Source of the DNA: Ginglymostoma cirratum
Lineage: Eukaryota
Direction: 5' to 3'
Assembly (NCBI GenBank): GCA_024137785.1
Contig: JAHRHZ010000018.1
Location: 34,105,819-34,169,818 of the forward strand
DNA: 64,000 nucleotides
Under the pieces are notes generated by a model. That model did not search any database. It saw nothing but the letters and a program-made list of their open reading frames with translations, and was not told where the DNA came from. The stretch's first letter is position 1. Each line of letters opens with the position of its first letter. Made by a program: the position numbers and the translations under genes. Shown piece after piece: positions 9,400-56,700 of this stretch.

Positions 9400-10200
9400 A
9401 TATGAGACAAGGCACTTGTGCAGGACAAACAAGGCAAGGGAATACATGAAGAATGGTAGGACACTGGGGAGCAACAAGGATCAGAGGGACCTTGGTGTAC
9501 ATGTCCACCGATCCTTAAAGGTATTGGGACAGATGGATAATGTGGTTGACAAAGTATTTGGGATACTTGCCTATATTAGCTGAGGCATACAGTTTAAACA
9601 CAGGAAGGCCATGTTGGAACTGTACAAAACAGTGGTTAGGCCACAGCAAGAGTATAATGCACATTTCTGGAATCCACTTTAAAGGAGGGCTGTGATAGCC
9701 CTGGAGAAGGTACAGAGGAGATTTGCCAGGATGTTGCCTGGGTTGGAGAGTTTCAGTTACGAAGAGAGATTGGACAGACTGAGATAACAAGGTGTGGAGC
9801 TGAATGAACACAGCAGGCCCCCAAGCAGCATCATAGGAGCAGGAAAGCTTGACGTTTCGGGCCTAGACCAGTTTGTTTTCCTTAAAGTAGAGGAGACTGA
9901 GAGGGGACATGATTGAAATGTATTAAATTATGAGGGGCATAGATAGGGTAGACAGGAAGAGACTTTTCTCCTCGATACAGGGGTCAATGGCCAGGAGACA
10001 CAATTTTAAGGTAAGGGGCAGGTTTAGAGGAGATGTGGGGAATAACTTTTTCACTTAGAAGGTGGTGGGAATCTGGAACTCACTGCCTGTGAGGGTGGCA
10101 GAGACTAAAACCATCAGTATTTTTAAGAAGTTTTTAGGTGCGTACTTGAGATGCCACGCCATACAGGCTACAGGCCAAGTTCTGGAAAATGGGATTAAAA
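9400..10200 (+). mobile_element. CR1 LINE 3' fragment
   Basis: QRDLGVHVHRSLKV...FGILAYIS and VVGIWNSLP...TISIFKKFL are CR1 ORF2 C-terminal motifs. Confidence 0.85.
9781..9869 (-). mobile_element. Short subfamily B insert, truncated within the hammerhead, inserted into a CR1 3' fragment
   Basis: Minus strand ggtctaggcccGAAACGTCaagctttcctgctcc...gttatctc; CUGANGA is missing. It interrupts the CR1 sequence ...ggacagact|gtttgttttcc. Confidence 0.8.
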
Positions 10201-10205
10201 TAGTT

Positions 10206-10930
10206 ATAGAGTCATATAGAATGGAAACAGACCTTTCGGTCGAACTAGTCCATGCCGACCGTGTTCCCAAACTAAAATAGTTCCATCTGCCTTGGTTTGG
10301 CCCATAGTCCTCAAAACCTTTCCTATTCATGTACTTATGCAAATGTATTTTAAATGTTGTGACAGTTACCTGCATCCACCACTTCCTCTGGCAGTTCATT
10401 CCACACACAAACTATTCTCTCTAAAAAAGTTACCCCTCATGTCCTTTTTAATACTTTCTCCTGTCACCTTAAAAATATGCTGCCTAGTTTTGAACACCCC
10501 CACCTTTGGAAAAGATCTTTGCTATTCACCTTATCTGTGCTCCTCATGAATTAATAAACTTCTATAAGATCACCCTCAAACTTCTACGGTCAGTGAAAAA
10601 AGTCCCAGCCTATTTTTATAACTCAAACCGTTTATTCCCAGCAATATCCTGGTTATTTTTCCGAACCATCTCCAGCTTAATAATATCCTTTCCATGGCAG
10701 AGCAACCAGAACTGCACACTGTACTCAAGAAGAGGCCTCACCAACATCCTGTCCAACCTCAACATGACGTCCCAACTTCTATACTCAAAGGTCGTAACCA
10801 TGCTGTCTACTGTTATGCAAATTCCAAAGAATTATGTACCTGAACCCCTAGGTCTCTTCGACAACATTACCCAGGGCCTTACCATTAGTCGTATAAGTCC
10901 TGCCCTTGTCTGTTATATCAACATATAAAT
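10206..10930 (-). mobile_element. CR1 LINE 3' fragment
   Basis: EYRSWDVMLRL..LVRPLLEYSVQFW; 3' ctatgactctat tail. Confidence 0.85.
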
Positions 10931-11247: not shown

Positions 11248-12505
11248 ATAGAGTCATAGAGATATACAGCACGGAAACAGATCATTTGGTCCAACTCGTC
11301 CATGCTAAGCAGACATCTTATGTAAATCTAGACCCATTCGCCAGCATTTGGCCCATATCCCTCTATACCCTTCCTCGTATACCCATCCAGATGCCTTTTA
11401 AATGTCGTAATTGTACCAGCCTCCACCACTTCCTCTGGCAGCTCATTCTATTCATGCACCACCCTCTGTGTGATAAAGCTCCCCCAGGTCCCTTTTATAT
11501 CTTTCCCCTCTCACCGCAAGCCTATGCCCTCTAGTTTTGGACTCCCCTGCCTTGGGGTAAAGACCTTGCCTTTTTACCTTATCCATGCCCCTCATGATTT
11601 TATAAACTTCTATAAGGTCACTCCTCAGCCTCCAACGCTCCAGGGAAAATAGCCCCAGCCTATTCAGCCTCACCCTATAGCTCAAACCCTCCAAGCCAGC
11701 AACATCCTCATAAATCTTGTGAGCCCTTTCTAGTTTCACAACATCCTTCCTACAGCAGGGAGACCAGAATTGCACACAATACTCCAGAAGTGGCTTAACC
11801 AATGTCCTGTACAGCTGCAACATGATTTCCCAGCTCTTATACTCAATGCACTGACCAATAAAGACAAGCATATCAAACGCTTTCTTCACTATCCTATCCA
11901 CCTGCAACTCCACTTTCAAGGAACTATGAACCTGCCTGCAAGGTCTCTGTTCAGCAACACTCCCCAGAGCCTTACCATGAAATGCGTAAATCCTGGATTT
12001 GCCGGTCCAAAATGCAGCGCCTTGCATTTATCTAAATTAAACATTATCTGCGACTCTTCGACCCATTGGCCCATCTGATCAAGATCCCATTGTACTCTGA
12101 GATAACCTTCTTTGCTGTCCGCTACACCTCCAATTTTAGTGTCATCTGCAAACTTACTAACCATACCTCCTATGTTCACATCCAAATCGTTTATATAGAT
12201 GACGAAAAGCAGTGGACCCATCACTGATCCTTGTGGCACACTGCTGGTTACAGGTCTCCAGTCTGAAAAGCATCCTTCCACCACCACCGTCTGTCTACTA
12301 CCTTTGAGCCAGATGTGTATCCAGATAGCTAGTTCTCCCTTATTCCGTGTGACCTAACCTTGTTAACCAGTCTACCATGAGGAACCTTGTCAAATGCCTT
12401 ACTGACATCCATGTACATCACACCCACTGCTCTGCCCTCATTAATCCTCTTCGTTAATTCTTCAAAAAAAAATTCAATCAAGTTAGTGAGACGCGATTTC
12501 CCATG
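11248..12505 (-). mobile_element. CR1 LINE, 5'-truncated, with RT core
   Basis: MDVSKAFDKVPHGRL, WRPVTSSVPQGSVMGPLLFVIYINDLD...KFADDTKIGG, LVKPLLEYCVQFWSP; ctatgactctat tail. Confidence 0.92.
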
Positions 12506-12810: not shown

Positions 12811-12882
12811 ATTCTGATGAAGGGTCACTGGATCTGAAACAGTGACTCTGCTTTCTCTCCACAGATATTACCAGACCTGCTA
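12811..12882 (+). mobile_element. Short subfamily A hammerhead-derived insert (3'-truncated)
   Basis: CTGATGA-AGGGTC(ACTG)GATCT-GAAAC..gactctgctttctctccacagat..ccagacctgct. Confidence 0.7.
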
Positions 12883-13289
12883 ATTTTGTCCCGTTTGTGT
12901 TAGGGCTGTGCCAACTTTGTACAAAGCTTAAACAGATGTCATTTGCGCTGCTTTGATTGAGAGGCCATCTGGTGAAGTTGGAAAAAGTAATTACCATTTG
13001 TTTGTGCTTTTTCTATGGAGTATTTTGTTGATAGTTAACAAAAGGCTAATATTACATTAGAATAAAGACTTGGCTAAGTTTCAAAGGCACAAATATCTCA
13101 GCACAATGTTCTGAGTTCAGAGCTTGTTAGTTTAAAGAGGCTATTAAAGAATTAGCTATCTGTGATGCAGGATCTAAATGGAAGACTTCTTCTTGTTTAC
13201 CCATTTAGGGAATCCCCCAACTTAAACAACCCTCCTTAATAGTGAAAATTTAGTCCACTAGGTGCAATTTTCATTATTAGTTAATGGAA

Positions 13290-13445
13290 TATGTGTACTG
13301 CTGGCTGACGCCTCATTAATTGTTTATCACTAATTGCACAGAGGATAGTTAAAATTCAACCACATTACTATAGATCTAGAATCACACATAAGCCAGACCA
13401 GGTAGGATGTCAGATTTCCTTCCCTAAAGGGCATTAGTGAAGGAA
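13290..13445 (-). mobile_element. Partial copy (3' half) of the same SINE
   Basis: caaccacatt...ccagaccaggtaggatgtcagatttccttccctaaagggcattagtga. Confidence 0.65.
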
Positions 13446-16400
13446 ATTAGAATGTTTCAAAATGTTTCCATTTTTCATTAATTCACTACAGTTCACGGAC
13501 TTAACTGAGGGCACTTCCCAGTCTTCCCTGCATTACAGTATGGTGTATTGAACAGAAGGAGAAGGACCTGTTTAGATAATGTTAAATATTAAATTAACAC
13601 AGATAGAATCTCTCAGTGAGAGACTCCATAACCACAGAGTCACTGGTTTAGATTCAAATATTTAGAAAGTCGAATGTGCTTTTGCTTGTTGATTAATAGT
13701 TCTCTTTTGATGCCTCTTTGCTGGTTATTTCACTAACACCTGGATTTTAGTTTAAATACTAGGTTTTGATCCTTTGATTTTTCTTTTGATTGTTTTATCT
13801 AGAAAAAAAAATTACCATAGTTTAATTCATCTGTTCACCTGTCAAGAGTTAGGAAATCTGTCTCAACACACAATAACTTGATATATTTGAACAGAAAGTC
13901 TGTATCCATAGCTTAAAACTATAATACCTGTTGCTAGGAAATTGAGGTATATGCATAGATGGTAGGAATACACTTATAATGTGTGCTTCATAGAGTGTAA
14001 GATCTGCAGTCCCAATGCTAACTTTAAAATTAGTTACAAACAGAATAGTAATGGTTAAAAAGAGAAGACCTACACCTTGAATGTTCTCAACTACAGTACC
14101 CTATTTGTTTAGTGCATTAGCGAAGTTTGCTTCCTGCCTAACAAGAAGTTAATGATATAAGAAAACACAGTCTCTCATGATGCCTTTTAGACAAATTAAT
14201 GGGATTAGGTCATCTTTCGCAAAATTCAAAACCAGACAGGGGGTGGAATTGGGGCAGGAGAGAGCGTGGGACCGTAGTTTAAATTCAGAGTCTCGATGTG
14301 TTGGTGATGAAAATATTCTTAATAACCTAAATAATTAATGGCTCCACATTATGAGACATGGAAATGTATGAAAACATGGACTTATATTTTAAAAATCAGA
14401 CTTTTGATGTCTGGTTTACATCTTAGATATTTCCGGACAGCCTACTCAAAAACAGAGCTGTCTAATCCAAAACTGGACTGGTGGCAACACCAGCAGCAGA
14501 AACTAGGAAGCTCCACAAAAAGGACAGCTGAGACCATTTGAGAAAAGAATGTTGTAATACTGTAGTACATTCCACAGGGAAGACAGCTGGAGCTGTGAAA
14601 AAAAAATAATAAGAAAAACAGAATATACAGAATAAAAGCAATTAAATGGTCTGCTAAGTAAATGGGAATGGAGTTGCAGTGTGATGTGTACTATTGGCTT
14701 TTGTTCAGTTCAGGGACAACTGGAAGACTGAAGAGTTAAGAGTCTGGTCCCGCAATTATTCAGCCAAGTGTTTGTACGGCGAGACAGGACACACATGCCT
14801 CCATTATATTTCTTCAAAGTTGGAATCAGTTCATGCCAATGTGGTGCACACATGCAATACCTTTTCCACTGTGTGTTGGATACATGTGCCAGGACTGACT
14901 GTCTGGCCCTTTTTTTAATCTTGATAAATCATTGGCAAATGATTGAAGGGTCGAGAAACTGGATGTAAGCAGATATGTAAACCTCAATGAAAGTAACTAC
15001 AGCACCTATTTCAAATACTATTCTAATTACTTCCCTAAATGTTTCGAGACAAAATTTAAAAACTTGTAAAAGAATGATCCAACATGAATCTAACAAAAAT
15101 ATTGTAATTATGTGCCTGGAGCCAATGCAACAAATGGAGCAAAATGAAAAGAAAAAAAAACTTACATTTGCCTAGCACCTTACACAGCCTCAGCACATCC
15201 CAAAGACTTTCCCAACGAATGCTATAATGTAGTAAAGCTGACACTCTGCAAGAGAGGAAGAGTGTGTGCCTGAGTTTACATGTCTCAGCGAGTGTGCATG
15301 TCAACATCTGCATGTGTGTCTAAAGCTAGGCAGTCTGGTACAAGTATGGAGGAGAGAAATGAATGTATCTTGGATGCCTGTTGGTTGATTACAGTATGAT
15401 TCATTAACACACACATTTGGCAATACCAGAATTTTGAAACCTCGAGTCAAAATCAAAGTCTGAAATGGGCTAACTGCCCAGTCATTAACACTGTAAAATT
15501 GTTACCATTTTGTCGTGGATTTTTAAAGTAAACTAAAATGCTTGCAATTGGCACCTATTGTGCATGTTGGCTGTAATACTGCACAAAGAATTGGAATTGT
15601 TTTGAAATACAATCCATAGAAAAATATTCCCAGAAATTTGGGATTCAAGTGTAATTTATATAAAAGACACAGCTGCTCTGGTGAACCTGAAGCTAAAGGG
15701 AAGGACATTTGGTCAATGTATCAAAGCTCAAAGACAGAGGGAACAAATACAGAAGAAAGAGAGCAGGCAAAGTGAAAGGTATTAAGTTCTCACAGAATTC
15801 CTGTGGCTTGGGTCTATCTTATGGAATTATTAGACACAAATTCTCCTCCCTGTTTCCCTGGTGCAGAACACACACCTAGTCAGTTTACTACAAATAGCCA
15901 ACCTGACTTCAATCAATCTCTGACTGGAAGGCAACTTCTGTATTTTCAGGGTGGTCGAGGATAGAAACTGAATAGAAACCTTCATGAATAAATGGAGCCA
16001 TAATGTGAGGATTTGACACACCCTGCTTATGGTCATAGACAGACCATCCTGGCCTGTAGAAATCAGTTCTGCAGGTTTGGCATTTAACTTTAGCCCTGGT
16101 CTATTATGGGACTATGTCTGGTGTGGCTGTTGAAAGATCCGTTCAGCAACAGGTGGGAATTCCATTATGTTTATAAAGAGGGACTGGTAGGTTCACAACT
16201 TCATTCCCCCACTCATGGATATACTGGGCACCAGATCCAACAATGCTGGCATGACTTCCAGCAATATCTTCACCCAACACTTTTACCCTTACTAATTCAA
16301 TTAAGCAAGGCAGGAATGTTTATGAGGGATTTACCCATTCTAAATCATTCAGAACTGACCTTGATGATAATCAGTCCCTATTCCACAATAAAATTAATCC

Positions 16401-16879
16401 AGTCCCTCATAGTGAGAACTTATATTAGATACAAAAGGAATAAACATGGCCATCATAGTGTTCGCTTCCTCCCTCTCTCATGTTGTAGCTTGACACCTGC
16501 TATGTGAAATCTGCTATTGAAAGTTTCTGCCTATCAAAAGGGTTATTTACAGCACAATTGCTGGGTCTTCTTGCAATTGAGAACCAGGTTTCTATGTGAA
16601 TGCAATGTGCACATCAACAGATCAACACAATAATATTTAAATGAATACTTTGAATGAATCGAAAAGAGAGCTCAATATTGGCAAGGAGATGATCTGATTC
16701 AGTTCCAATGGAAATTGACAGCATGTATGCTGCAATTAAGGAACAGTAAACATGCCAGCTAGTCAACCACATGGAAAGTCAGAAATATTCAGAAGCCATG
16801 TAAAGCTTGTAACTACAGTGGTATTGTATTTGTATGGTGGCTTTGTTCGCAAGTTTATAATGGGTTAGAACAGTATGTT

Positions 16880-16975
16880 GTGTTCTGAGGAAGGCAGACC
16901 TGAAACATTAACTCTGATTTTTTTCTTCACAGATGCTGCCAGACCTGCTGATCTTTTCCAGCAACTTTGTTTTTA
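16880..16975 (+). mobile_element. Short hammerhead-derived insert (subfamily A) with 15 bp TSD
   Basis: TSD ttagaaca(g/c)tatgtt at 16865-16879 and 16976-16990. Reads gttCTGAGGAaggcagacctGAAAcattaactctg...cacagatgctgccagacctgctg...ccagca. Confidence 0.82.
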
Positions 16976-17278
16976 TTAGAACACTATGTTTACTGTTTCT
17001 TGCTCTCACTTACTGAGTGTGTGCATGGGAACAAAATAATTAATAACAGTAGCTTTTACTAATCACAAGTTAGCTGCCCTTCTTTAAGAGGAAGAAAAGA
17101 ATTTGCCTTGCAATGACAATGATAAGAAAAAGAATGTCACCACAGCTTTGCCACTACAAAGTTAAAGAAGCAACCTTAATGCAATGTGGACCACCACATT
17201 ATCATCATCTTCCACTGACAATGTCAGAAAATGACGACATTATTGAGGTTGGTTGGCTCGCTGAGCTGGTTTGTTGTT

Positions 17279-17322
17279 CCGCAGACGTTTCATTAGCATG
17301 CTTGGTAACATCCTCAGTGCAG
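17279..17322 (-). ncRNA. Hammerhead ribozyme in the inverted pLTR arm (stem II partly decayed; same sense as TGFB2 pre-mRNA)
   Basis: Minus strand CTGCA-CTGAGGA-TGTTACCAAGCATGCTAAT-GAAACGTC-TGCGG. Confidence 0.75.
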
Positions 17323-19007
17323 CCTCTGATGAAGTGTCGGTATGTTTTCCCACCTGGTTTTTAAACTCTGGGGTCCGTTGCGATGGATTGCCTCACTTCC
17401 AGGTTTCCTCCATAGTGGAATGTATATGGGGTCGAGTTCTATGTGTTTATTAATAGCATGCTTCGTGGAGTGCCATGCTTCCAGGGATTCTCGTGCTTGT
17501 CTCTGCCTAGCCTGTCCCAGGATCTCGGTGTTGTCCCAGTCGAAGTCGTGGTCCTCCTTGTCCATGTGGATTGAGATGAGTGAGTATTGGTCGTGTCTTT
17601 TTGTAGTCAGTTGGTGTTCATGTACTCTTGTTGTTCGTTTCCTTCCTGTTTGTCTGATGTAGTGTTTCTCGCAGTGTCTGCAGGGGATCTTGTAGATGAC
17701 ATTGGTCCTGTACATGGCTGGGAGTGGGTCTTTATTTCGGGTGAGCACTTGTCGTAGGGTTGATGTGGGCTTTTGTGCCACTCTGATGCCTAGCGGTTGT
17801 AGGACCACTAGCAAGGGAAATAATGATAACACTACTTGAACAAGAACACGACTCCAGTGAAACCACCTCCAAGGACAACATGCTTAAACTACTGGACCTA
17901 TGCCTGACCATCCACTTCACCTTCAATGGCCAAACATATAAGTAATTCAACGGGACACCCCAGGGATCGCCTATCTCGGGACTCATAGCAGAAGCAGTGA
18001 TGCAAAGACCGGAAAGGACTGCCCTTCTGCAAATCCAACCTAAACTATGGATACGCTACGTAGACGACACCTTTGGCATCATTAAATGGACCAAATTAGA
18101 AGAGACACACAAACTCATAAACAACACCCTCACCGGAATAAAATTCACCAGAGAGGAGGAGAAGAACAAACAACTCCCATTCCTGGACATCATGGTAGAG
18201 AGCAAGACAAATGGGGAACTGCAAATGAAAGTTCACCAAAAAGCCCCACACACAGACCAGGTACTGAACTTCAATAGTAACCATCCCAGCGCACAGAAAC
18301 GAAGCTGCGTGCGAACACTATTTAAAAGGGCAACAACACACTGCAGCAACATGGAACTATGCCAAGGGGAGGAGGAATATCTCTTCCAAGTGTTCATGGA
18401 TAATGGATATCCAAAGCATTGGGTCAGGAGATGCCTACAGGAACAGCATCAGAAAGATTCTACACGCCGCGACACACTCATCACACAACCCTACAGCAGG
18501 AACACATGGGAACTCACCACAAGACTTCTACGACCGCTGGGCATCAGAGTGGCACAAAAGCCCACTTCAACCCTATGACAAGTGCTCACCTGAACTAAAG
18601 ACCCACTCCCCACCATGGACAGGACCAATGTCATCTACAAGATCCCCTGCAGAGACTACGAGAAACACTACATCGGACAAACAGGAAGGAAACTAACAAC
18701 AAGAGTACATGAACACCAACTGACTACAAAAAGACACGACCAATACTCACTCATCTCAATCCACATGGACAAGGAGAACCACGACTTTGACTGGGACAAT
18801 ACCAAGATCCTGGGACAGGCTAGGCAGAGACAAGCACGAGAATCCCTGGAAGCATGGCACTCCACGAAGCATGCTATTAATAAACACATTGAACTCGACC
18901 CCATATACATTTCGCTACAGAGGAAACCCGGAAGTGAGGCAATCCATCGCAACGGACCCCAGAGTTTAAAAACCAGGTGGAAAAACACACCGACGCTTCA
19001 TCAGAGG

Positions 19008-19051
19008 CTGCACTGAGGATGTTACCAAGCACAGTAACGAAACGTCTGCAG
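19008..19051 (+). ncRNA. Minimal type I hammerhead ribozyme in the Penelope 3' pLTR
   Basis: CTGCA-CTGAGGA-T-GTTAC(CAAGCACA)GTAAC-GAAA-CGTC-TGCAG: 5 bp stem I, full core, stem II, palindromic ACGU helix III and GUC cleavage triplet. Confidence 0.88.
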
Positions 19052-21320
19052 AACAACAAACCAGCTCGGCGAGCCAACCGACCTCAACACCCACTACCCG
19101 AGCTACAGATCTACTCCAAAACCTTAGTGATGACATTATTACTAAGGGGGGAGGGAATTAAAAATGCAAGTCTTTTACGTGCAGATTGAAGGCCGGAATT
19201 CCTCAATTCACCTGACTGGACTGCAACAGACCTTCCATCCACCATCGCAAACTTTGCCAGTTCCCCTGGGTTGGAGGTGATTGGATTTTCACCACAATAT
19301 TCCCTCACGATCACAAACAACAATTGAGGGCCCACCAGCGAACCACAGGAAAATTAAAATTGTGTTGTATCAGGACAACAGTTACAGTATGTGAAGTACC
19401 ACAGAACCCTGAACATTAGATTAACTCATTTGAGGAATTGAATGGATTTGCAGTTTAAGGCTTTGAGGGTGGAAGCTTTGAACAGGTTTGCAATTTGGTA
19501 GTTAAGGTAGCTCTATTAAACTTCCTCCCCCCATGCTCTCCACCTCCCCTCACATAGTATTTAAAAGGATTTTGGAAACTTCCCACAGCTGACTCAAGTC
19601 TATTTCCACCTTTCCTACTAAGCCAGCAGTGTCCATTCAGGATCCCTTTTTCACTCATCCTAACCAGTGCTGTTCAGATGCAGGAGGTAGAAAAGGCATT
19701 TCCAAAGCTGGTTCTGTCAGAGCTCATGGCGTGAAACTTCAAACTCGGACAGTAAAGTGTCTGTTGGCATCAACTGACCCATTTCTTGTCACTCTGTACC
19801 ATGATCGTACTCATTTCCAGGAGGATTAGAGAGGGGATTATAGCCCACACCATGTTATTACAGCAGAAACACAGCCAATATCATTTTGCACGTGATCTGA
19901 GGAGCATCACTTTCCCAGCACAGATCAAAAGTCTATACTAATCTTCCCATTCCATGCCTTTCCTTTCAAAATGCATGTATATTTATCTTTTAAATGTGAC
20001 TTTTTAATGTATTTTTTAATGAATATGTTTTCCTAACTGGCCCCCACTTGATCCTTCCCATTCCACTGACACAAGATGGACTGGAATGGTTTAAGCTGCC
20101 GTCATTTCCATAATGGCTTTCAACATGTCAAAGTATTTTCTAATGGGCCCCCAACTGAACTGAACAGACTCAGTTTTGTATGGTCCCTTTAGCTAATAAA
20201 CCCACTAACAATGGACAATGCTTTCCCAAAGAAAATAATCAGTGAAAGGGGCTCATGAAAATATTCAGCCTTTTGGTTAGGAGTCAAGAACTTGACTTTT
20301 TGAGATACTGGCTTGCTTCATACATTCCATATTTCAAGAAATAGCGAGACTATCAGCTTTACTGCCTGTGCTTTGGGAAATCATTACTTTCAGGGTAGAT
20401 AAGGATAGCAATGCCAGGCTAAGTAAAATGCTATTGCCAACAGATAACTGTAGAATGTAGGCTGTAAGCTAATATCAATTCAAACTGTCCAACAGACACC
20501 CTTCTGGATTATATTCATGTTTTGACTGTATATGATCCAACAGTCACAATACAGCGTAGTAGGTAAAAACTTCTTCAATTCCCACAGACTAATGCTGTAG
20601 TCGCTGAAATCTCTTTCCCCACTATGAGTGAGCTAAAAGTTCAGATCTACCATGACCATTCACGGCTGGGACTCTTGGGAAACTATATTTGACTCTTGAT
20701 CAAATTTTCCGACCCTAAATGACTACTACTTTCCCCTGAAAATACATTAATGTTTTGATTTGATTTTATGAGGAGATTGCTTTGAGAAAACAAACTGCAA
20801 AGTGTGAAGAATGCTGCCACTTCTGGGAGGCCTTGGCCCACCCTCATATCTCTCATATTTTTTTCAGATAGAAATCACTATTCAAAGGTGTTTTTCTCTT
20901 GCAATGAAAATGAACTTTATTAAAAGAAGTAATCTTAGAATTTTCTGGTCATGCTGTCAGTGGTATTATTGATATAATTCAATTTTGGCAGAGCTGCTAT
21001 TTGCAACAAATCCATTGCGCCTTCCAATGCAAAGGATAGGGATACAGTTTAACTTTTATTTTGTGAAAATAAAGGCTTCCTGGAAACATATAATTACAAA
21101 GTTAAATTAGTTTTGAATGTATAAGATCTTGAAGTGAGATAATAGAAGAGCTTTGTATTAATAGGTTGCACTTGGACACATTCTGGGAAGAAGCAAGTTA
21201 GCCTTCACTGATCTGTGGCTGACTAAACATGAGATACACATTTCTGAAGAGAAGTCTTAAGTCATATAGTTTAAATTTTATTCATGCAACTAGATTTGCA
21301 TTAAAAAGTCAGAAAAGCTA

Positions 21321-21418
21321 AAGCAAATACAAAGAATGCTGGAGAAAGTCAACAGGTCTGGCAGCATTTCTGAAGTGAGAAACATATTTAATGTTTCAAG
21401 TTGAGCATGACTTCAGTC
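21321..21418 (-). mobile_element. Short decayed subfamily A insert with perfect 14 bp TSD
   Basis: TSD agtcagaaaagcta at 21307-21320 and 21419-21432. Minus strand ..gaagtcatgctcaacttGAAAcattaa...atgctgccagacctgttgactttctccagca. Confidence 0.75.
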
Positions 21419-22089
21419 AGTCAGAAAAGCTATGTTTATTTGAAAGATCTACTTATTGCAATGCACTCAACGACAGCACATAAATAATATTATACCATTT
21501 TCACAACACTTTGCTGGATTTTTACATTGCTTTGCATTGATTGCAGTGTTCGAGATTAAACACGCTACATGTGGAATTGACAATTTCTCTCCTGGCTCCC
21601 ATTTGTACATAAACCAGCCAGTGACTGGAAATATAGCCTTATAGGCATTCAGAGGCAATGTAGTTTGGATCAGAATCCTGTGTTTTCTTTTTGTTGAGTG
21701 GAACATTTGGAGCAGGGAAGGGAAATACAGGAGAACACTAACTTTTCCAGAATAAAGACAGAGGATTCTGGAGATGCTAACAACAGGTCGTGAAACTGAA
21801 ACACTGTGCTGTGCTTTACAATGCATGGGGTTTGGAACGACAAAGCTAGAGTGAAAATCAGGCTCTCAAGTTGCTTTTGCAGGCACAAGGATCAGTCCAG
21901 TGATCTAACTGCTGATGGCCTCCAAAATGGCTGTCCAAATCCATGAGGGGCTAATCAAACCACACCCACACTTGCCACCTATCCACTGCTGGCAAAACCT
22001 CCCTGACTCCATAACTGTTGTAACACAGTTCCCATCGTTTTACCAGAATTCTGCATTTGTTCCTGCCACTCAAGCATCAGTTAAATTAA

Positions 22090-22345
22090 ACAAAAACCAA
22101 AGAACTGAGGATGCTGGAAATCAGAAACAATTTCAAACATTGCGAGAAAAACTCAGCAGGTCTGCCAGCATCTGTGGAGAGAAAACAGAGTCAATGTTTC
22201 AGGTCCAGGAATCCTTCTTCTGAACAAGTAAAATTCAGCCTGTTAAGACAATATTTCTCCTGATCTGCAGACCTGCTTAGTTTCTCCTAACATTTCCTAT
22301 TTTTTTTTCAGACGTGCAACATCTGGAGTATTTAGCTTCTTCAGT
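22090..22345. mobile_element. Subfamily A unit on the minus strand (22090-22225, with 3' tail) next to a decayed plus-strand remnant (~22255-22345)
   Basis: Minus strand gttcagaagaaggattcctggacctGAAAcattgactctg...cacagatgctggcagacctgctgag...tgatttccagcatcctcagttc. Confidence 0.68.
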
Positions 22346-27479: not shown

Positions 27480-28100
27480 TTCTATACACTCAATTATTCC
27501 AATGCGACCCTGAAAGAATGAGTTAATCCAAAACCCTCTGCCTGTACCTTAACTCATTCCAAGTCCCTGTTACCTCTGTGTTCACTGACCAATTTTGGCT
27601 CCTGATAAGGCAAAGCCTAGATTTAAAAATGTTCATCCTTGTTTTCAAAACCCTCCATGACCTTGCAATTCCTTCTCTCTGTAGCTTCCTGTAGCCGCAC
27701 TGCTCTTTGTGATTCTTTGATTTTGGTCTCTTGCACATCCCTGATTTTCATCATTTCCTTATTAATAGGCAGTCATGACTTCCACTGCCTTGGCTCTGGA
27801 CTCTGGAATTTCTTCTCTGAACTTCTCCACATCTCTTTCCTCCTCAAAGATGCTTTTAAAAACCTATCATTAATCGCCTGTCCTAACAACTCTTTACATT
27901 GTTCAGTGTGAAATTTTGTTTCATGAAGTTTCTGGGATGTGTCTTTGGAAGATTTCCAACATTAAAAATGCCATATAAAGAGTTCTGAGGAAGGGTTATC
28001 AGACCGAAATGTTAACTGTTTTTTCCTTCACAGATGCTGCCAGACCTGCTGGGCTTTTCCAGCAACTTTGATTTTTTCCCTATATAAAGGCAAGTTGTTG
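27480..28100 (+). mobile_element. L2 LINE 3' end, interrupted near its tail by the hammerhead insert
   Basis: atccaaaac..tgcc..ctcattccaagtcc..ttggctcc..tttaaaaatgttcatccttgttttcaaaaccctccatg, tail ..atataaa..caagttgttg. Confidence 0.7.
27981..28081 (+). mobile_element. Short subfamily A hammerhead-derived insert with 8 bp TSD, inside an L2 3' tail
   Basis: TSD atataaag at 27973-27980 and 28082-28089. Reads agttCTGAGGAagggttatcagaccGAAAtgttaact. Confidence 0.78.
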
Positions 28101-46429: not shown

Positions 46430-46742
46430 ATGACAGGCATCATTGACAAGACCAGCATGCATTGCTCATTCCAAATTATCACTGAACTAATTGACTTGTT
46501 AGACATTTGAGGGCAGTCAAAAGTCAATAATATTGCAATGGATCTAGAGCCACATATAGATCAGAATGGATGAGGATGGTAGATTTCCTTCTCTAAAGGA
46601 CAACTGATGATATGGTCATTAGTATTTATAATTCCTGAATTATCAATCGAATTTAGGCTCCTCCAGCTGTTGTGGTGGGATTAAATCCCATGTCCCAGAG
46701 CACTAGCTTAGCCCAGTGACGTTACCACTATGCCAACATCTC
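46430..46742 (-). mobile_element. Decayed copy of the same SINE
   Basis: Homology to the 2782-3121 body and head. Confidence 0.65.
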
Positions 46743-47344: not shown

Positions 47345-47550
47345 AAAAACAAAACACTATAAATGCTGGAAATCTGAAGAGAAAATGCTGAAAATGTTCA
47401 GCAGGCCAGGCAGGAGTAGTAGAGAGAGAAAAAGAGAGTTAATGCTTGAGGTTCATGATCTGCACTCGCTCAGATGAAAGGTCATTGACCTCTATTTGTC
47501 TCTCTGCACAGATGTTGCCAGATGTGCTCAGCATTTCCAACACTTCCCAC
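47345..47550. mobile_element. Older decayed head-to-head pair of subfamily A units
   Basis: Minus unit ~47345-47460 and plus unit ~47468-47550 (cagatgaaaggtcattgacct...cacagatgttgccagatgtgctcagcatttcca). Confidence 0.6.
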
Positions 47551-48330
47551 TTCTACTCGCTTTTGCGAGCCCTTCAAAAAAAATCAATAAGACTTATTGT
47601 GTGTCTCTCATTCCCCTTCAGCAAGAAACCCAGCAGCAGCTGCCTGCAATCTGGTTTGGCACAACATTAAACACGAATTTCAAAAGACAAATGTTCAGGT
47701 AGGCAAAAAAAAAACCACACACAACCTGCTGAGGCAAAATCATTCATTGTCAAATGAGTGATTAATAAAAATGATCATTAAAATGCAAAGCAGGATAGTT
47801 AACCAATAAAACTTCTGGGCTTTAGCACTTGAGAAGCAAGGTAGAGGGAGACAGATCAGCCCCTAAGACGTGGTTAACATGAGAGGAGGAGGGGGCTGGA
47901 GAAGATATAGAGTTGAGTTTAACTAACAATGAGCCTGTACTCACCTCCGGTGCCTCAGGCTTTAAACTAGTCTTGATGTAATACATATGAAGGTGGGGTT
48001 CAGCTGTAGGTGGCCTTTCAGCCTGGGTTTCCCTCCTCTCCCTGCTTGATGTGTATGTGGATAGGTTTTTGGGAAGGGAGGAGGGTACATACCCCCGAAC
48101 CAAGCAGCCGGTGTATGCCTGTACGTGTGTGCCCAATTCACAACCACTCTCAGGGTTCTGTCTCATCTATTCTCTCACCCTGCTCACTCTTCTCTTAATC
48201 TCATTCAGTCAGTGTCTCCCACACCCACTTACTTACTTACTCTCTTAGTCACACTCACCTACACTTTCCCACACTCACTCACTAACACTCACATTCACTC
48301 CGTCACTCACACCCAGTTATTTCCATACTC

Positions 48331-48441
48331 GAGATAACAAGCATGGGGCTGGATGAACACAGCAGGTCAAGCAGCATCATAGGAGCAGGAAAACTTGACG
48401 TTTCGGGCCTAAACCCTTCATCAGAAATGGACCATCAGAAA
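48331..48441 (-). mobile_element. Short hammerhead-bearing retro-insert (subfamily B) with 13 bp TSD
   Basis: TSD tatttccatactc at 48318-48330 and 48442-48454. Minus strand reads ..ttCTGATGA-A-GGGT(TTAG)GCCC-GAAACGTC-aagttttcctgctcctatgatgctgc...gttatctc. Confidence 0.85.
48392..48429 (-). ncRNA. Minimal hammerhead with intact core, same sense as TGFB2 intron 1
   Basis: CUGAUGA at 48424-48418 and GAAACGUC at 48404-48397; 4 bp stem II; weak 4 bp stem I (AUUU/AAGU). Confidence 0.75.
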
Positions 48442-50329
48442 TATTTCCATACTCTCTCTCTTTCACACTTGCCAACTTATTCACACTCTCACACTCACTG
48501 TCTCACTTACCCTCACCAGCCAGGGAAAACTGAAATCAGAAGAAAACATATAAACATCAAACCTTCAGAAGAATATTCAGAACCAGACACAGAGGAGGAA
48601 GTATTGGAGGAGGAAGTAGACAAGGACCGTGTGGTAAAATCTCTAAACCCTGCACCTACACATTCTGACTGGAGATTCGAGAACATGGAACTAGAATCTG
48701 TCGCCACCACTGGAATTTCACATTGCGTTGATAATGCCCCAGCTTACAGTCCTGATCATAGACAAAACCAGAAATATAGACTCCCATAAGATATCAGAGG
48801 GAGGACCTCAGATCGGAAATATCAGTTAGGAAGCTGGCGGAGTGGTGAGGGCAGAGGTGCTGTGTTGGGGTGTGGGGTAGAAGCCATGTCATACATAACT
48901 GCATGGGTGAGGCAGGAGGTTTGGTTGAGAAGCAGACCCCAGGGGTGGGTTGGTGGCAAGTCAGGGAGCTTGAGGGGTGATGAAGGATCCATCAGCCATG
49001 ATTCCCCACGTGACGAGTAAGAGGGAGGGAGGTCTGATGCTGAAAAGATGCCCTGGATTTTGGATTTTGGTGGAGGTGAAGTTGTCATCATCAGCCAATA
49101 GCATCATGCATGAGCAGGTAAGTGGTCAGGATATTAGATCATCCAAATGGTTTGATTTAGGTAGGACAGGACCACACACACCAGTAAGGCAGATGGCCGA
49201 GAAAGGCCTTCAGGCTAGAGGTGTGCAGCACCAGCAGATTTACTTCTGTTCATTCAACTTGTGCTCAGGAGCCTCCACTTCCAAGCAGGTCCAACAAATA
49301 ATCCACCACGTGTCACACACGGAAGGGAAAGAAAGGAAGGAGATCACTGACTGGGGAATCTGATGTATCTCATTGGCTCAGTGATAGTTGTTCTTCAGAC
49401 CCCAGCAAACATCAGCCGATTAGCCTGTCAACTGGCATGGTTTACATTCCAGATTAACTGCTTTGGACACAGACCATCCAATTTAGCAAGCTAGATGGTC
49501 AATGAGCCCAAGCCTTTTAGACACACAGGCTCAGTGATTGTCACTGTCTGCAGTCTGCCCCCAGGCCCTGAACTACTTTTAGTACCTTTGGTCATGTCAT
49601 TTGACCTGTCACTTGTAGGGGTGCAACACCTGGCTGAAGTGACCTGCTCTCAGTTTTTCCTTCATTATGGTGGCAAAGATGTCGGATGACTGCACTGCAC
49701 CTTTCCTTCTTGGCACTGTTAAAAGTGTTACTTATTCTGCAGAGAACTGCATATCTGCTGTACCATGCTGAACCCATTAATCATTAAGTGCTACACTCAG
49801 CACATCAGCTTTTCTTCACACTCTGTCAAAGCTTGGCTAAAACACTCTTATCAAAGATAGACAAGTATGAAAGGGGGCTAAAGACTGCTGTTTAGAACAG
49901 ATGGCACTCTGAATCGTGGGTTTGAGAGACTGGAAAAGACATGGTGGGAATGAAGCAATGAAGGTGAGAGCAAGACCATTCTGAAGAAATCAATATAAAC
50001 GTCAAAACCTGTACATTGCAGTGAAGTAGAAGCATTCCTCAATCAAAGGCATGGTAGTGAGTGTCATTTTCTATCTCCTTTAAACTTATAAAAACAAAAT
50101 ATTATTGCAGAGAATTATAAAGAATGGGGAATCTCAAGTAATTAATTGGTAAGTTAAATCAAATACAATAGTGATATAGCAGGGCGGGTGATGTGTTGCT
50201 GCTGCAGCATGTGGAAGCTGCTGGACACCAATGTGATCTAAAGTGGACACATCTGCAGTAGCAGTTACAAGATTCTTGCAAGTTGAGCAGGTGAGTGTGA
50301 GAATTGCAAGGAGGATGAGCAAACTGACC

Positions 50330-51160: not shown

Positions 51161-53631
51161 TTATAGTGTCAAGGCAGCATCTAACATCAGTTAACTCATT
51201 AAGCTCCCCCAATTTTTCAGTACATGGAACTCTGTATTTTTAATACATGTACAAATATTTTCCAGATTACTAAGTTTCAGATTGAATGTAATTGGAAGAG
51301 TCCCAGAGATATGTCTATCAATTCTCCTAAAGCTGATACATGCGGTCAGTGATATAACATAGATTAAGGACATTCTTCAATAGATATTATTATCTGGCTG
51401 TAGCTAACTCATTCAAAATCATCTCCTCACTGACAAAACTTGAAAATATCAGAACAATGTTCCATAAACTACATTTGCATATCAGTAACAGCATGTGATA
51501 AATTAGCAAATGATTAAAAATTTCCCTGAATAGAAGGCTTTTCAGTTGCGGTCACTGGCCTTCCTGAATTAGTTCGGCTACATAAGTACACTTTGAAATG
51601 ACTCCTGCAGAACTATATTTAAAAAAGTGCAAACAAGTAAGCTGTCAGTTAAGCAGTATTACTGTCTAAAACCTATTACTGTAGATTATAAAACGCAGTC
51701 AGCAATACCAATTTATGTATTGCACTGTGCGCGGCTGAAAGTCATACTGGCCCAACAGGAAAGAGCACTGAACATGTACATTTCCACACATGCATAGAGC
51801 TCCACTCCCTGGTATGATTTTTGTTAGGAGACTGAGCTTAAGTGTCCAATTGCTCGTAACTTCAGAAAGATTCAATGCTCAGATGATAAAGTGCTCAGAT
51901 GGTGCAACAGACTACTTGAACATATATTAAATACAAACAAAACTGTGTATCTTCAACTTAATTTTTTTAGGAGAAAAAGACTGTTAGGATAGTTCCAACT
52001 TTTGAGTCACATAAAAAATTTGATCTAAAGATCATTCACTGAGATATTTCAGATAGTTGTTTAATTATGTTGAAATACCGCCAGTTGTTGCTTATAAGGA
52101 TTTCATGAGGGTGGCGGTGGGGGAGGGTGTGCAGCGAGGGAAACATTTTTTAAAAAATGTTTCCTTGTCTAAATGCATTTTTGACACTAAAATGAGGTTC
52201 AGGATATCATCTGTTTTGGGGCGTTTTAAAAAATAAAAACCCTCAAAGATAGTTGCATATTTTTGATAACAGGCAGCAGCAATCAGAAATATCATCTGTA
52301 ATCAAGTTTTCTGCCTAAAGCAACCACTGCAATAATCAAATCATTCAATAAAATGGCATTCATAGATTGGATCTAAGCCTGCTTCCACAAGCCAGCAAAT
52401 GTTTTCATTGCTGCTGTCAACTGTGTGATACTGTGCTTTTTAACAAAAAAAAATTTGGACAAGAATGCCATACAGCATTGCAACCTTGCACAGAAAACTT
52501 GAAGACTGCTTACGCTTGTAAATGCAGCCCTTGTTTAATTGATGTTTTTCCTAATTTTATTTTAATTATGATTTATTTATAGTGACTAATTTAATGAAAT
52601 TATGTTTTTATTCTGTGGGATTCCAGAACTTCTTATCTATATGTTTTGAAATTTCAACCCAGCACTTTCTTCATCTATAATTTGGATGACTAGTTTGCAA
52701 AGATTGAAGTCATTCTTTGTTTATATTACATGAGATTCTGGGAATCTTACCAGAGTTTTAGGATATTTCATAAATCCTTCTGTGAAAATCATAATCCAGT
52801 GGCATTTTAGGAATTTACACTCGAGTTACAGAAATGATATTCTAAATAAGAAGAAATAAAATTTTTTTTTTTTTCAAATCTGAGAAATTATTTAGCATCA
52901 TTTGTCTAGTAAAGTACAAATATATGATAAATTATTGGGTTTTGAAGCAGCATCTATAAATCAGGGAATATTCTCTATCTTGTGTACAGTACATCAGCTG
53001 GAAGCTGCCAGACACAACTGTTGACTAAAATGTTAAAAATTTCTCCAGAGCCAAATAATAATGAGGAAAAAAAAGTGAGGAAAATGAGTTGGAAGAAGGT
53101 TCACATGATGGAATGATGGCCTGGAATTTCCTGGAAAGTTTCAGTGAAATTATATTGTAAAATTGGAATTGTGCCAGATTTTTCCAAGAAAATTTGTATG
53201 TAGCTGATTAGCGCTAGTTTACCACTGATACATCTCAAAGTGCAAATTGCCTCCATTACTTGCAACACTTCTGAGATAGCGCTGCCAAAACACTCTGCTG
53301 CTTATTTACATCTCTCCATCCCATGCAAAACACCAAGCCTCACACAGAATTATATCAGCGCAGAAGGAGACCATTTGGCCGAGAGTCCATGCCCTCTGTG
53401 CAATGAACCAGTCAGTCCCATTACCCTGTTCTATAGGTGCAGCCCTGTAACATCACTGCATTCAAATGCCTATCCAACGTCCTTCTGAAAGCACTTATCA
53501 TCTCTGCTTCCAACACCATTATGAGCAACAAATTCATGGTCAGTATCATTCGCTGCATTAAAAAAAAAATTCCTTATCATGTACTAGTCGCACTCATACC
53601 TAAAATTCCTCATGTCCGGTATCACTCCATT

Positions 53632-53751
53632 TTTCTGAAGAAGGGTCCTAACCCAAACCGTCAACTTTCCTGCTTCTCTGATTCTGCCTGGCCTGCTGTG
53701 TTCCTCCAGCTCCACACTGTTATCTCTGACTCCAGCATCTGCAATTCTTGC
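53632..53751 (+). mobile_element. Short hammerhead-derived insert (subfamily B, with 3' tail) with 12 bp TSD
   Basis: TSD tatcactccatt at 53620-53631 and 53752-53763. Reads CTGAAGA-AGGGT(CCTA)ACCC-aaacCGTC (GAAA box mutated); body homologous to 48331-48441. Confidence 0.8.
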
Positions 53752-56700
53752 TATCACTCCATTAAATCTATTTTGGATTCTTTATCCCTCACATTTCCTG
53801 GACTTATGCAACAACAAACAATGCCATGGAATAGATTGATTGGGAGGTATTTAGGTATCTGATATTGACATAAATGGGGGTTCTGGAGTTTGATCAGAAT
53901 TTTCTTCATAATCTAAAACAATAAACTTGCTGAGAGGTGCATTATACCTATCCAGTGTTGCTCGCAGTACATCTGAAATACTTTGACATTCCCTGCATTT
54001 GGAAAGGTTAAACTGTTGGAAACATCTTCCCACTCTGTATAACCATGTCTAAGTAATACAAGAGCCACAAGGGAGCACGCGGAGAGAAAAGGCTCCAAGA
54101 AAGAGGTGCAATGGCAGAGGATAACAGTTAGTTATTTCACCTGCTGATGGTGCTGCATTTGGACTTGTTTTATGCTGATTCTCACACTATGCCATACACA
54201 CCAGGGCTCCATAATTTGGATCTACATTCTGCAGCATGACTGGTGCAGAAACCAGCAGAGGTTTTGATGCGAGTTAAATTCAATCTAGGAAATGCCAGTA
54301 TAAAAAAGAGTTATTTCTGGAAAGTGAACCAGTTGATTGTGTACTTCCTTAGGAAGTGGTGAAATTACGGTTTTTGAACAAATACAGTATTGAAAAAAAG
54401 TCATTTCCTGAGGAATCCTAACTTGACTTTCACCAGTGCCAGCTGCCTTAAAGTGGTTACAGATAAAACGCAGCAGGTGAAGGGGCTCCGGAAGAGTAAC
54501 GCCTCACTGGGTGGAAATGGCTGAAAGGTGGACTTTCAGACCTTTTTGTTGTCTTTTACAAGGAAGATGTGTTGAAATGCTTATTCAGAAATCACGTCTT
54601 CTTGTCCCCTTCACTACTCGGTGAACTAATGCATGAAAAAGGAGGCAGTGTCAAGTAGCTGATGCCCAAACACATTTTATGACTGTGGCCAGTGGTGGCG
54701 AGAAGTAAACACTTCGAAACACAAAATTACAGAATCTGTGGCTCACGAAGCTTGGAACTCTGCCGGCCCAGGCTAGCGTTGAGTTATAAGTAACCACACA
54801 GCTCGCCGCCCTCAGGGGAGAGAAGCTGGAATCTACGTTCTGAGCTTCTCATGGTGGAGGGGAGTTGGTCCCATCCCACGTTTGACCGCTCTTGTGTGTA
54901 TTGCATGGGCGGCAAGCACTAACCACTCTCCCCAACCCCCCACCGGTCCTTTTGAAAACTCTGCATCGTTATTCCATGAACTCAAAGCACTGGGTCACTT
55001 TCCCTCTGTTCACCGGAGCCAGGCACACACAAGAGCACTGAGGCTCGGATTGGGAGATTGCAATTCCATGCAAAAACAGCCTCAAAACTGAAGCAGTGCA
55101 AGTTCTGCACCACCACCCAAGCGGCAGATTGGAGATTGGAACCTATTATTTACGTCCCGTTTCGATCACATGTTTAACTCCGATCTTAAGAGGCAGAAGC
55201 AACCAATTTGCACTCTGCAGTTTTGAACCAGGAACACACAGCATGCCAATTCGGCGCAAGAAGTAAGAAGTTTAGCACCATGTGCGCCAAATTATGAGAA
55301 ATTATAGGGAAGACTTGAATTTACATAGCGCTTTGTAGCCATCCCATTACGCTTTACAGCAAAGAAAGCGATTTCAGTGGCTTCACATCAGTTTGCTTTA
55401 TAATAATCCCTAGGCAGGTCAGAAAACAAGTTTTTATTTCACTTTCAATCAGACCTTCCTTTTCTCCCCGCCCTCCTCAATGAGTTTGAAAATATTCAGA
55501 GAGGAGAGAAACATGTCCGGAAACGTAAATTGGAGTAAAACAGTTCACGGGCTCGCAAAGGATTGAGACTTGCTTTCGGGACGACTGGAAATAAAGCACT
55601 GTGTCGATGTGTGTCGATTTCTGGCCTGGATTTCTCGTTTATTATCCCAAGCGTCTTCCGAGACTGCACTCAATATTCGGACCTAGCAACTATTCTTTAC
55701 CAAGGCAACCAAAGTATAAATACAAATACCACCGAGTCAAACTACACTCATTCCTCGTTTAGCAAAGCCGTTGATAAAACCGAGGAAGGTGTGTTTTCGA
55801 CATTTGACCTCCAATAAACAGCAAAATGATACAAGGTCACCTGCCAACTCTCCCCAAAGTAGCGGTAACTTGATTTAGGTCAAAAACCCGCATTAAAGGC
55901 AACTTTTTTTTTTGTTTTCAAGAATGTCCAAGCTGTCCTGATATCATCCTTATTATCTCGCCACTATCCCTTTGACCCAGTTCTGGGGCGGAATGGTATT
56001 GGCATTCAGCCCAAGTTGAGAGTCTGACAGTATTTCTGTAACGGCCAAGGATAGCACTGTTATGTGAAACAGTACCCTGAGGATTGTGAGGCAGGCGATT
56101 TCCGTCCTTTAACCTGCTGCACAAATGACTGGACGTGCACGTGTTCCAGACAGAAATAGCGATTTCACTTCATTGGGGTGGGGGTGAACTCTGTTGTGAA
56201 GAGCTGTTGTCTGAACTGATAAAGCTGCGCTGATTATTGTTGACATTGAACATGATTACACATTCTGAACTGTGGGAATACCTCAAAATTTCGACAATTG
56301 TCTAAAATCTGATATCGCGTCGTTAATGGGATAGGTTATGGGCTATTTAACACTACATGACAACTTTTCACGTACAAAAACAATCATACCCATGCACGGT
56401 TTGCGATACAGGAACAACTCAACGGCTTGGTTTCTGGTGCTGACCTCCCTGAAAAGTCCCATTAACAATTTAAGGATGTGGAACAGATTATAAAGATCAC
56501 ATTTTATAGATTTCCTATGTACGTTCTTTAATAAACCTTCGGTTAAATTAACCACAGGAGAACCGCAACAATATTTCGGAGCCAAAAAAAAAGTAATTTC
56601 GGTTGATCTGAAAATAAAAGGTTATCGTTCCTTTTCTTTAAAAAAAAAGCATCGATTTCCACATCAGAAATGGACAAGTGCTGGACAACTTGACTCTGCA

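Follow-up and report, generated by a model that had tools for sequence, protein, structure and literature searches.

Short inserts bearing hammerhead ribozyme sequence in the genome of the shark Ginglymostoma cirratum have 5' ends that are clustered at one position and are not random truncations. Their sequence places these inserts in autonomous Neptune-type Penelope-like elements (PLEs), of which they form the terminal hammerhead module; they are not a separate non-autonomous family. It is probable that these stubs, as we call them, arise when reverse transcriptase (RT) starts inside an RNA, roughly 100 or 130 bases behind its likely capped front end, and then runs off that end. Hammerheads at PLE ends are already known, and the element class itself is ordinary.

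Hammerhead-derived inserts in the window

The window analyzed here is a 64,000-nt stretch of G. cirratum contig JAHRHZ010000018.1, and module positions are numbered from 0, the first base of the CUGANGA core. All ten inserts named in the original prediction are present and homologous, and they form two groups, A and B. They are listed below with their target-site duplications (TSDs), followed by two copies of a different PLE which, like the clustering of 5' ends at one position, were absent from that prediction.

9781..9869, minus strand: B-type module beginning at about +9; ribozyme core absent; no TSD above chance
12811..12893, plus strand: old A-type module beginning at the hammerhead head; motif degenerate; TSD not found
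16880..16977, plus strand: A-type module with the short end (+96); stem II deleted in part; TSD 16865-16879 / 16976-16990 (15 bp, 1 mismatch)
21321..21418, minus strand: old A-type module beginning at about +18; no core; TSD 21307-21320 / 21419-21432 (14 bp)
22088..22226, minus strand: tailed A-type module (+134); mutated core; candidate 9-bp TSD at chance level
27981..28081, plus strand: A-type module, -4 to +96; 8-bp TSD 27973-27980 / 28082-28089, chance-level score
38106..38351, no single strand: two A modules head to head, with the tailed arm (to +135) on the minus strand and the short arm (to +97) on the plus strand; candidate TSD (10 bp, 1 mismatch) at chance level
47345..47560, no single strand: head-to-head A pair, old and diverged; right boundary approximate
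48331..48441, minus strand: young B1 module spanning -6 to +93; minimal hammerhead intact, with core at 48424; 5' junction with 11 additional nt; TSD 48318-48330 / 48442-48454 (13 bp)
53632..53753, plus strand: tailed B2 module (+120); GAAA mutated; TSD 53620-53631 / 53752-53763 (12 bp)
17243..19087, plus strand: different PLE, 5'-truncated, with RT and GIY-YIG; inverted 5' arm; intact minimal hammerhead at 19013
62866..64000, minus strand: second copy of the 17243 PLE; hammerhead at 62940; extends beyond the window

The PLE at 17243..19087 would be Poseidon-type by the feature of lacking a Zn-finger linker. Five clear TSDs had been claimed for the inserts. Those of 15 (1 mismatch), 14, 13 and 12 bp at 16880, 21321, 48331 and 53632 outscore all 150 random controls. 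The fifth, the 8-bp duplication at 27981, adjoins the insert exactly but scores at chance level, being matched by 10 of 150 controls.

We searched the window with a strict descriptor of the minimal type I hammerhead (CUGANGA, stem II, GAAA, UH, stem I). It matched at 48424 (minus), and at 19013 (plus) and 62940 (minus) in the different PLE, with no match in 30 shuffled windows; the Rfam hammerhead search that had been suggested gave no match in the window at E<=10. Every insert had been described as starting at or within a minimal hammerhead. All are hammerhead-derived, but the motif is intact at only one of the ten sites (48424, minus); the CUGANGA core is missing at 9781 and 21321, and the other non-intact sites are mutated. 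The 6-bp stem I of the proposed subfamily A consensus needs correction: ahead of the A core the element itself reads CATCAGTT, which makes stem I 4 bp long. B1 and A heads conform to the minimal type I hammerhead with a 4-bp stem I; stem I of B2 is only 2 bp. Among 17 A and B heads, 88.8% of stem positions are paired with one two-sided change, and shuffled controls (27-494 of 500) are not clearly beaten. This count covers A and B, a third family having been left out when it did not align; the paired stems of that family are wholly different in sequence. For B1 and A monomers the hammerhead is not the minimum-energy fold (z ~0), as expected for a minimal motif.

Several other identities were rejected. 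No tRNA or tRNA-like head was found and insertion 3' ends carry no poly(A) tail, which bears out the view that these are not ordinary SINEs and disposes of a tRNA-derived one. A MITE is rejected because there are no terminal inverted repeats with a short fixed TSD, and because the centres of the inverted pairs vary and their two arms are unequal. The Rfam MIR matches at 38205, suggestive of a miRNA hairpin, are the inverted pair itself. The inserts at 38107 and 47345 are head-to-head inverted pairs and not tandem dimers, and the 64-kb window holds no tandem arrays of the module and no repeats running from cleavage site to cleavage site, which rejects a retrozyme array and the retrozyme-like units originally envisaged.

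Coding capacity of the parent elements

In other copies, groups A and B both extend upstream into RT and GIY-YIG coding sequence, in agreement with the PLE machinery that had been proposed. Nested extensions of this kind, reaching about 2.2 kb, are present at 12 of 30 loci in group B and at 5 of 30 in group A. In one long copy, L247, Pfam matches to RVT_1 (E=1e-6) and GIY-YIG (E=2.4e-5) lie within a single 537-aa frame, and the insert at 48331 is identical to the 3' module of this copy at 100 of 100 positions. A second copy (L439) carries an unbroken 1037-aa ORF and a third (L437) has a module-ORF-module layout. The unit opens with a module (-5 to +93 or +127), followed by a short leader and the 1037-aa ORF with its ATG; a pyrimidine-rich 3' UTR of about 250 nt and a second module complete it. 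Within the ORF the order is RT, Zn-finger linker and C-terminal GIY-YIG. Broken old frames gave Pfam matches in 1 of 7 and 1 of 4 proteins, and the coding content of the A family is shown by broken frames and homology; a PDB sequence search returned chance matches only.

The young B1 element thus has the single ORF with RT and C-terminal GIY-YIG of an EN+ PLE, and the shark elements share with Neptune-type PLEs (clade features as in PMC8557442) a pseudo-LTR (pLTR) formed by partial tandem arrangement, an optional tail of 30-40 nt, an inverted 5' copy, TSDs of variable length, insertion 3' ends free of poly(A), and heavy 5' truncation. The linker between RT and endonuclease, CX4CX2C, fits the Neptune pattern CX2-5CxxC, which is common to Nematis (PMC8557442), and the assignment as Neptune-type is made by this shared feature. 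What differs from other Neptune-type PLEs is that the shark carries about 1.1 million terminal modules, most of 100-135 nt, starting at one position. The density of one module per 3.9 kb agrees with the high copy number predicted. The non-autonomous Penelope/retrozyme-like family of the original prediction is not supported, in that the module belongs to autonomous elements and the inserts are without the upstream TATA-like region; its alternative reading, extreme ends of PLE pLTRs, was essentially correct.

Position of 5' ends

We mapped the 5' ends of 131 modules in 511 kb of sampled genome stretches, from which 42 of 80 arbitrarily placed stretches had been excluded for having no readable sequence. 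Sixty-four begin at -11 to +3, concentrated at -5/-4, which is 4-5 nt ahead of the ribozyme core, and 21 extend upstream. The remaining 46 begin 3' of +3, indicating that ordinary truncation also occurs. Copies carrying 5' body sequence likewise start at -6 to +5 in 17 of 29 cases. Genome-wide, there are 3,206 exact matches with a non-C base at -6, and 27 of 30 inspected are true short starts.

Promoter-like words stand at a fixed distance from this position. Among B copies that retain upstream sequence, 85 of 108 have TATTTAT at -31; in family A, 14 of 30 copies have TATAAA at -29. Such TATA-like words occur 0-2 times per 2-kb element. In both families an Inr-like word lies at the start position, about 30 nt behind the TATA-like word. 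There is also an extra G at -4/-5. In composites, module and ORF-fragment pieces are joined ahead of a module; where both sides of such a junction are known, we observed the G in 11 of 12 (A's precede it in 4). It is also present in 16 of the 26 young copies that are not inverted (p=1.4e-4). A hand count of the first 100 listed of the 3,206 matches gave 40 G, 16 A and 44 T (G versus A, p=3e-6). For family A, which is older, the extra G does not reach significance (4 of 12 at -4, 0 of 7 at -5). An RT adding C without a cap would yield the same extra G.

The pile-up could instead be a pause site, at which RT copying a long RNA from its 3' pLTR stalls at the hammerhead stem or the upstream C-rich tract. 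Ladders of truncated copies do exist, the B upstream tract is C-rich, PLEs are heavily 5'-truncated (PMC8557442), and the start site is not seen in RNA run X21. We consider this improbable given that family A has the same offset despite different upstream sequence, that the TATA/Inr spacing fits exactly, that the untemplated G and A+G at the junction point to run-off and a jump and not to a stall, and that the T-run differs from 3 in 37 of 81 short starts whereas it does so in 1 of 108 continuous copies.

An account that we rate lower still is a non-autonomous, retrozyme- or SINE-like hammerhead mini-element with its own transcription, mobilized in trans. Short copies far outnumber long ones, and retrozymes derive from PLE pLTRs (bioRxiv 10.64898/2026.07.22.740005). 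Set against this are the identity of the young short copy at 48331 to the module of an autonomous element, the form of the units, which neither run between cleavage sites nor build arrays in the window, the composites, which show RNAs starting at -5 to run on into the ORF, and stubs without the TATA region. In a weak form of this account, many stubs may derive from RNA of solo 3' ends that keep the TATA region, and solo 3' ends bearing the promoter region are indeed common.

Inverted pairs

Modules have two preferred 3' ends, +93 and +127, and 88 of 97 classed head-to-head pairs combine a short with a tailed arm; many of the pair and junction loci come from targeted searches and are not an unbiased sample. 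TSDs of 10-21 bp flank 65 of 130 pairs and 0 of 150 controls. Each head-to-head pair is a single insertion. An origin by self-priming on an antisense transcript, proposed for rotifer PLEs (PMC3846280), with solo stubs as remnants of such structures, would suit pairs whose two arms belong to one subfamily (28 of 30; shuffled mean 10.9) and RNA reads that are strand-balanced in an unstranded library, but is very unlikely here because the extra G and A-run lie on the sense 5' end, each arm terminates at one of two RT start sites, and extension of both strands has been shown in vitro (PMC11167929).

Predicted cleavage site and RNA

Module-module junctions end at +27/+28 at 14 of 74 loci (p=5e-4 versus uniform), a null that is generous since ends also peak at +35 (8), +23 (7) and +39 (7). 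The +27/+28 ends make up 10 of 35 junctions with untemplated bases (p=9e-5), and one locus (L374) has five in a row. Rare short multimers repeat only the 5' 33-50 nt, and a junction search in family A gave one match. These junctions suggest that ribozyme cleavage after +27 probably affects some transcripts. The cut RNA would not be the main template; only 7 of 131 modules start near the cut site (+23 to +33), by which copying mainly from cleaved RNA is rejected.

For RNA, the poly(A), unstranded run X21 is the sole informative source (X22 has 5 reads; X3 and X17 are contigs). In X21 there is no site where many molecules begin or end, and neither start nor cleavage is seen. Passenger transcription dominates, with 77% of aligned reads continuing into unlike sequence, and reads are balanced across strands. 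Stubs lie inside host transcripts.

Proposed mechanism

In the run-off model that we favor, the TATA-like word at -31/-29 and the Inr-like word would start Pol II transcription at -5/-4. The endonuclease would nick the target, and the nick would prime RT at +93 or +127. On reaching the RNA 5' end, RT may add a C across from the cap, which would appear as the extra G; cap-derived extra G's of this kind are known. Integration of the short cDNA would leave a solo stub, priming of both target strands, one per start site, would give an inverted pair, and a jump of RT to the 3' end of another RNA would give composites and partial tandems. Stubs without the TATA region would be dead ends.

Minus-strand strong-stop DNA of LTR retroelements is a short cDNA that begins internally, close to the RNA 5' end, and extends to the cap. 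More tentatively, PLEs may replicate through a step comparable to that of retroviruses, in which target-primed RT copies the capped 5' module first and an obligatory jump to an RNA 3' end, set partly by hammerhead cleavage, lets it copy the remainder; we regard this as possible but doubtful. The systems resemble each other in having a promoter-bearing region upstream of a repeated region. They differ in that shark priming would be by nicked target DNA and not by tRNA, with direct integration, and in that the jumps seen in the shark are end-to-end or by microhomology, so the likeness is an analogy and not membership. Were such a step real, the pseudo-LTR would be regenerated and partial tandems, tails and inverted arms explained; the million stubs would be failed transfers, and the multimers telomerase-like repeated copying of a short template.

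Comparison with known systems

Published minimal type I hammerheads share the 4-bp stem I, the extra base before stem II, the G-C closing pair and the palindromic stem III stub. They too are mostly single motifs with some opposite-strand pairs, which have been read as truncated PLEs; sharks are not named in the part of that account consulted. In the shark, by comparison, stem I begins at the putative transcription start and junctions peak at the predicted cut site.

The Anolis Poseidon element PAc has been studied in vitro (Frangieh et al. 2024, PMC11167929). In that study, two internal RT start sites bound the tail, both target strands are extended, and uncleaved RNA is the main template, with no reads at the cut site. 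The shark copies agree with PAc in these start sites, in both-strand extension, in the uncleaved main template and in the lack of reads at the cut site. PAc belongs to another clade, and its ORF starts inside the hammerhead, whereas that of the shark starts about 40 nt after the tail. Run-off at the RNA 5' end and template jumps are not addressed in the part of that study consulted.

Non-LTR retrozymes are alike in their type I hammerhead, pLTR derivation, lack of coding and occurrence as dispersed monomers (PMC7229834; bioRxiv 10.64898/2026.07.22.740005). They differ in forming tandem repeats of 150-450 bp, with canonical ribozymes and circular RNAs in PMC7229834, while shark stubs occur singly or as head-to-head pairs and are not monomers delimited by cleavage.

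Implications

The stubs alone would make up about 2-3% of the G. cirratum genome (order of magnitude). Pseudo-LTR regeneration, the origin of tandems and inverted arms, sense versus antisense RNA, and cutting in vivo are described as open questions for PLEs (PMC2377424, PMC3846280, PMC4209133, PMC11167929). The young shark family, present in thousands of nearly identical copies, provides base-resolved junctions that bear on each of them. Its natural, unbroken 1037-aa ORF suits the existing assay of the anole element. The approximately 1 million stubs likely record how a poorly understood class, the PLEs, copies itself.

The inserts are terminal modules of Penelope-like elements

All ten homologous inserts of the original prediction are present in the window, in two groups, A and B (at 9781, 12811, 16880, 21321, 22090, 27981, 38107, 47345, 48331 and 53632). 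Among the target-site duplications (TSDs) proposed for them, those of 15 (1 mismatch), 14, 13 and 12 bp exceed 150/150 random controls, and the one of 8 bp does not. At both 38107 and 47345 the insert is a head-to-head pair. Opposite the 22090 copy, positions 22230-22330 may hold a degraded second arm of A type. A hammerhead had been proposed at every insert; a strict minimal-hammerhead descriptor matches only 48424 among the ten sites. The descriptor finds three motifs in the window versus none in 30 shuffles, the other two lying outside the ten sites in another Penelope-like element (PLE), and an Rfam scan of the window returned no hammerhead match. The other annotated features of the window are:

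17243-19087: second PLE, first copy, without Zn-finger linker
62866-64000: second PLE, second copy, 94% like the first, without Zn-finger linker
57348-57824, minus strand: exon encoding TGF-beta propeptide (PF00688, E=3e-10)

In both copies of the second PLE the minimal hammerhead is intact and its stem I is 5 bp long. The copy at 17243-19087 also has an inverted 5' arm, a one-sided tail and what looks like a TSD of 9 bp. All ten inserts are situated 3' of the TGF-beta propeptide exon and are probably intronic. A near-perfect 25-bp hairpin at 9172-9242 has sub-threshold miRNA-family matches. Further dispersed repeats (2777-3132, 13328-13460, 44961-45304, 46496-46572; 10278-10573, 11329-12027) resemble, by appearance, a SINE-like family and LINE-like 3' ends.

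Genome searches showed upstream continuation in 12/30 B loci (163-1068 nt, as a nested ladder) and 5/30 A loci, and further walking reached about 2.2 kb in both families. At locus L247, a 537-aa frame contains RVT_1 (E=1e-6) and GIY-YIG (E=2.4e-5) domains, and its terminal module is identical to window positions 48331-48430 (100/100). Long PLEs ending in the same module exist, and the module belongs to a PLE with an RT and GIY-YIG ORF rather than to a separate non-autonomous system. The 48331 copy is a member of the young subfamily B1, whose RT-region copies are 99-100% alike. Locus L439 has an unbroken 1037-aa ORF running from ATG through RT and a CX4CX2C linker to GIY-YIG; locus L437 carries the module at both ends. 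At the element's 5' end the module continues through its tail to a short leader and the ATG. The linker would, by that feature, place the element in Neptune or Nematis (PMC8557442). The closest named proteins are from Rhincodon (93%), Stegostoma (88%), Chiloscyllium and rays, from which we infer a probable carpet-shark relative as host and a wide spread of this PLE family in elasmobranchs. Two ray gene models with host-gene names (P0011, P0053) contain RT-EN sequence of the young PLE, which suggests annotation spill-over or exonisation. Residues ~190-285, in the N-terminal part of the young protein, form a variable-length Ala/Thr/Pro/Asp-rich repeat linker (L298, L303, L305, L317). Many young insertions (L296-L325) consist of a module, 0.3-1.7 kb of ORF start and a second module, a composite class without the full ORF.

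Of 80 stretches placed arbitrarily in the genome, 38 were readable; these 373 kb contain 95 modules, or one per 3.9 kb. Provided that the readable part is representative, the 4.36-Gb genome would hold 1.1 million (Poisson range 0.9-1.36 million). Adding the window and its neighbours brings the count to 131 modules in 511 kb, 46 of them in inverted pairs.

Module ends and junction bases

Positions in the module are numbered from the first base of CUGANGA, which is 0. Module 3' ends fall into two classes, at about +93 to +97 (short) and +120 to +135 (tail), and RNA reads have loose ends at both positions. The 5' ends of 131 modules lie at -11..+3 in 64, farther upstream in 21, at +4..+22 in 22, at +23..+33 in 7 and beyond in 17; among copies chosen for 5' body, 17/29 begin at -6..+5. 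An exact genome-wide pattern that requires a base other than C at -6 matched 3,206 times, and the first 30 matches comprise 27 true short starts and 3 mutated long copies. In both families an Inr-like word (consensus YYANWYY) has its A at -4. Among copies retaining upstream sequence, 85/108 in family B have TATTTAT at -31 and 14/30 in family A have TATAAA at -29; natural 2 kb copies contain 0-2 TATA-like words each. These Pol II-type signals would set a transcription start at -5/-4. TATA and Inr have been noted before in the pseudo-LTR (pLTR) of a rotifer PLE (PMC3846280).

Where an element's own 5'-body piece is joined before a module, the sequence of both sides is known. In 12 of 16 such junctions the module begins at -4/-5, and G precedes it in 11 of these 12; the G has no source on either side in 10, and 2-8 A's stand ahead of it in 4. 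Among all non-inverted young copies beginning at -4/-5, 16/26 have the extra G (p=1.4e-4). A hand count of the base at -6 in the first 100 genome-wide matches gave 40 G, 16 A and 44 T, the T class taking in pair centres and mutated long copies. The older A family shows no significant G excess (4/12 at -4; 0/7 at -5). The extra G probably marks run-off at the RNA end, opposite a cap that RT would copy; L1 and cap-trapping work reportedly links such a G to the cap. The two modules of locus L300 differ at three subfamily-diagnostic sites, and therefore some jumps, at least, were between RNA molecules; RT may jump to RNA 3' ends. Long copies would arise either by priming at the 3' module or by transfer of short cDNA, the latter a novel case.

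In the poly(A), unstranded RNA run X21, 20,562 reads fall on a 901-nt stretch across the module, with no pile-up of begins or ends there, and 77% continue into unlike sequence. These reads show passenger transcription and neither support nor exclude the start site.

Inverted pairs

We collected 137 inverted pairs over all loci, many of which came from targeted searches. The 97 with both arms classed comprise 88 short+tail, 7 tail+tail and 2 short+short pairs. TSDs of 10-21 bp flank 65/130 testable pairs versus 0/150 controls (p about 1e-17), and 28/30 typed pairs have the same subfamily in both arms. Because of these flanks, arm classes and shared subfamilies, each pair is one insertion. Antisense self-priming, as proposed in PMC3846280, fits the pairs less well than twin priming, which would proceed from both target strands at the two start sites. 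An anole PLE protein primes in this way in vitro (PMC11167929).

The ribozyme and its possible cleavage

In A and B1, stem I starts at -4 and is 4 bp long, stem II has 4-5 bp, and the palindromic stub is present; B2 retains only 2 bp of stem I, and in a third family the stems differ and are paired throughout. Formal counts on 17 A and B heads give 88.8% paired, not clearly above shuffles. A pattern in which a cut-short module precedes another module matched 93 times; with 6 matches containing N removed, these reduce to 74 loci. In 14/74 the end of the first module is at the predicted cut, +27/+28 (p=5e-4 against uniform), as it is in 10/35 junctions with untemplated bases (p=9e-5); locus L374 has five such junctions in succession. 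This test is weakened by further peaks, at +35, +23 and +39, which stem from microhomology or from the edge of the pattern. The peak is suggestive of cleavage in vivo, and transcripts may be cut by the ribozyme. Since few copies begin at the cut site, cleaved RNA is not the main template. Loci L374, L388, L397 and L402 contain arrays of 2-5 repeats of the module's 5'-most 33-50 nt; junctions differ inside the first three, and the arrays resemble repeated copying of a short template.

Relation to published work

Minimal hammerheads in pLTRs are already published and are widespread, both singly and in pairs on opposite strands (PMC4209133). Tails and inverted pLTRs have been described (PMC3846280, PMC8557442), as has internal initiation (PMC11167929). 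Our search, for which most subscription papers were outside reach, turned up nothing published about hammerheads in shark PLEs, nor about a fixed 5' run-off, an extra G or jumps in any PLE. The module family may be catalogued already, and the supplements of PMC4209133, PMC11167929 and a retrozyme preprint that includes one cartilaginous fish (bioRxiv 10.64898/2026.07.22.740005) may bear on novelty. Given the element anatomy, end positions, junction bases and pair geometry observed here, the best explanation is that RT would start inside the RNA and run off a likely capped 5' end, the cDNA then being integrated or RT jumping to another template. The interest of the find lies in the junctions, as a likely record of the mechanism.
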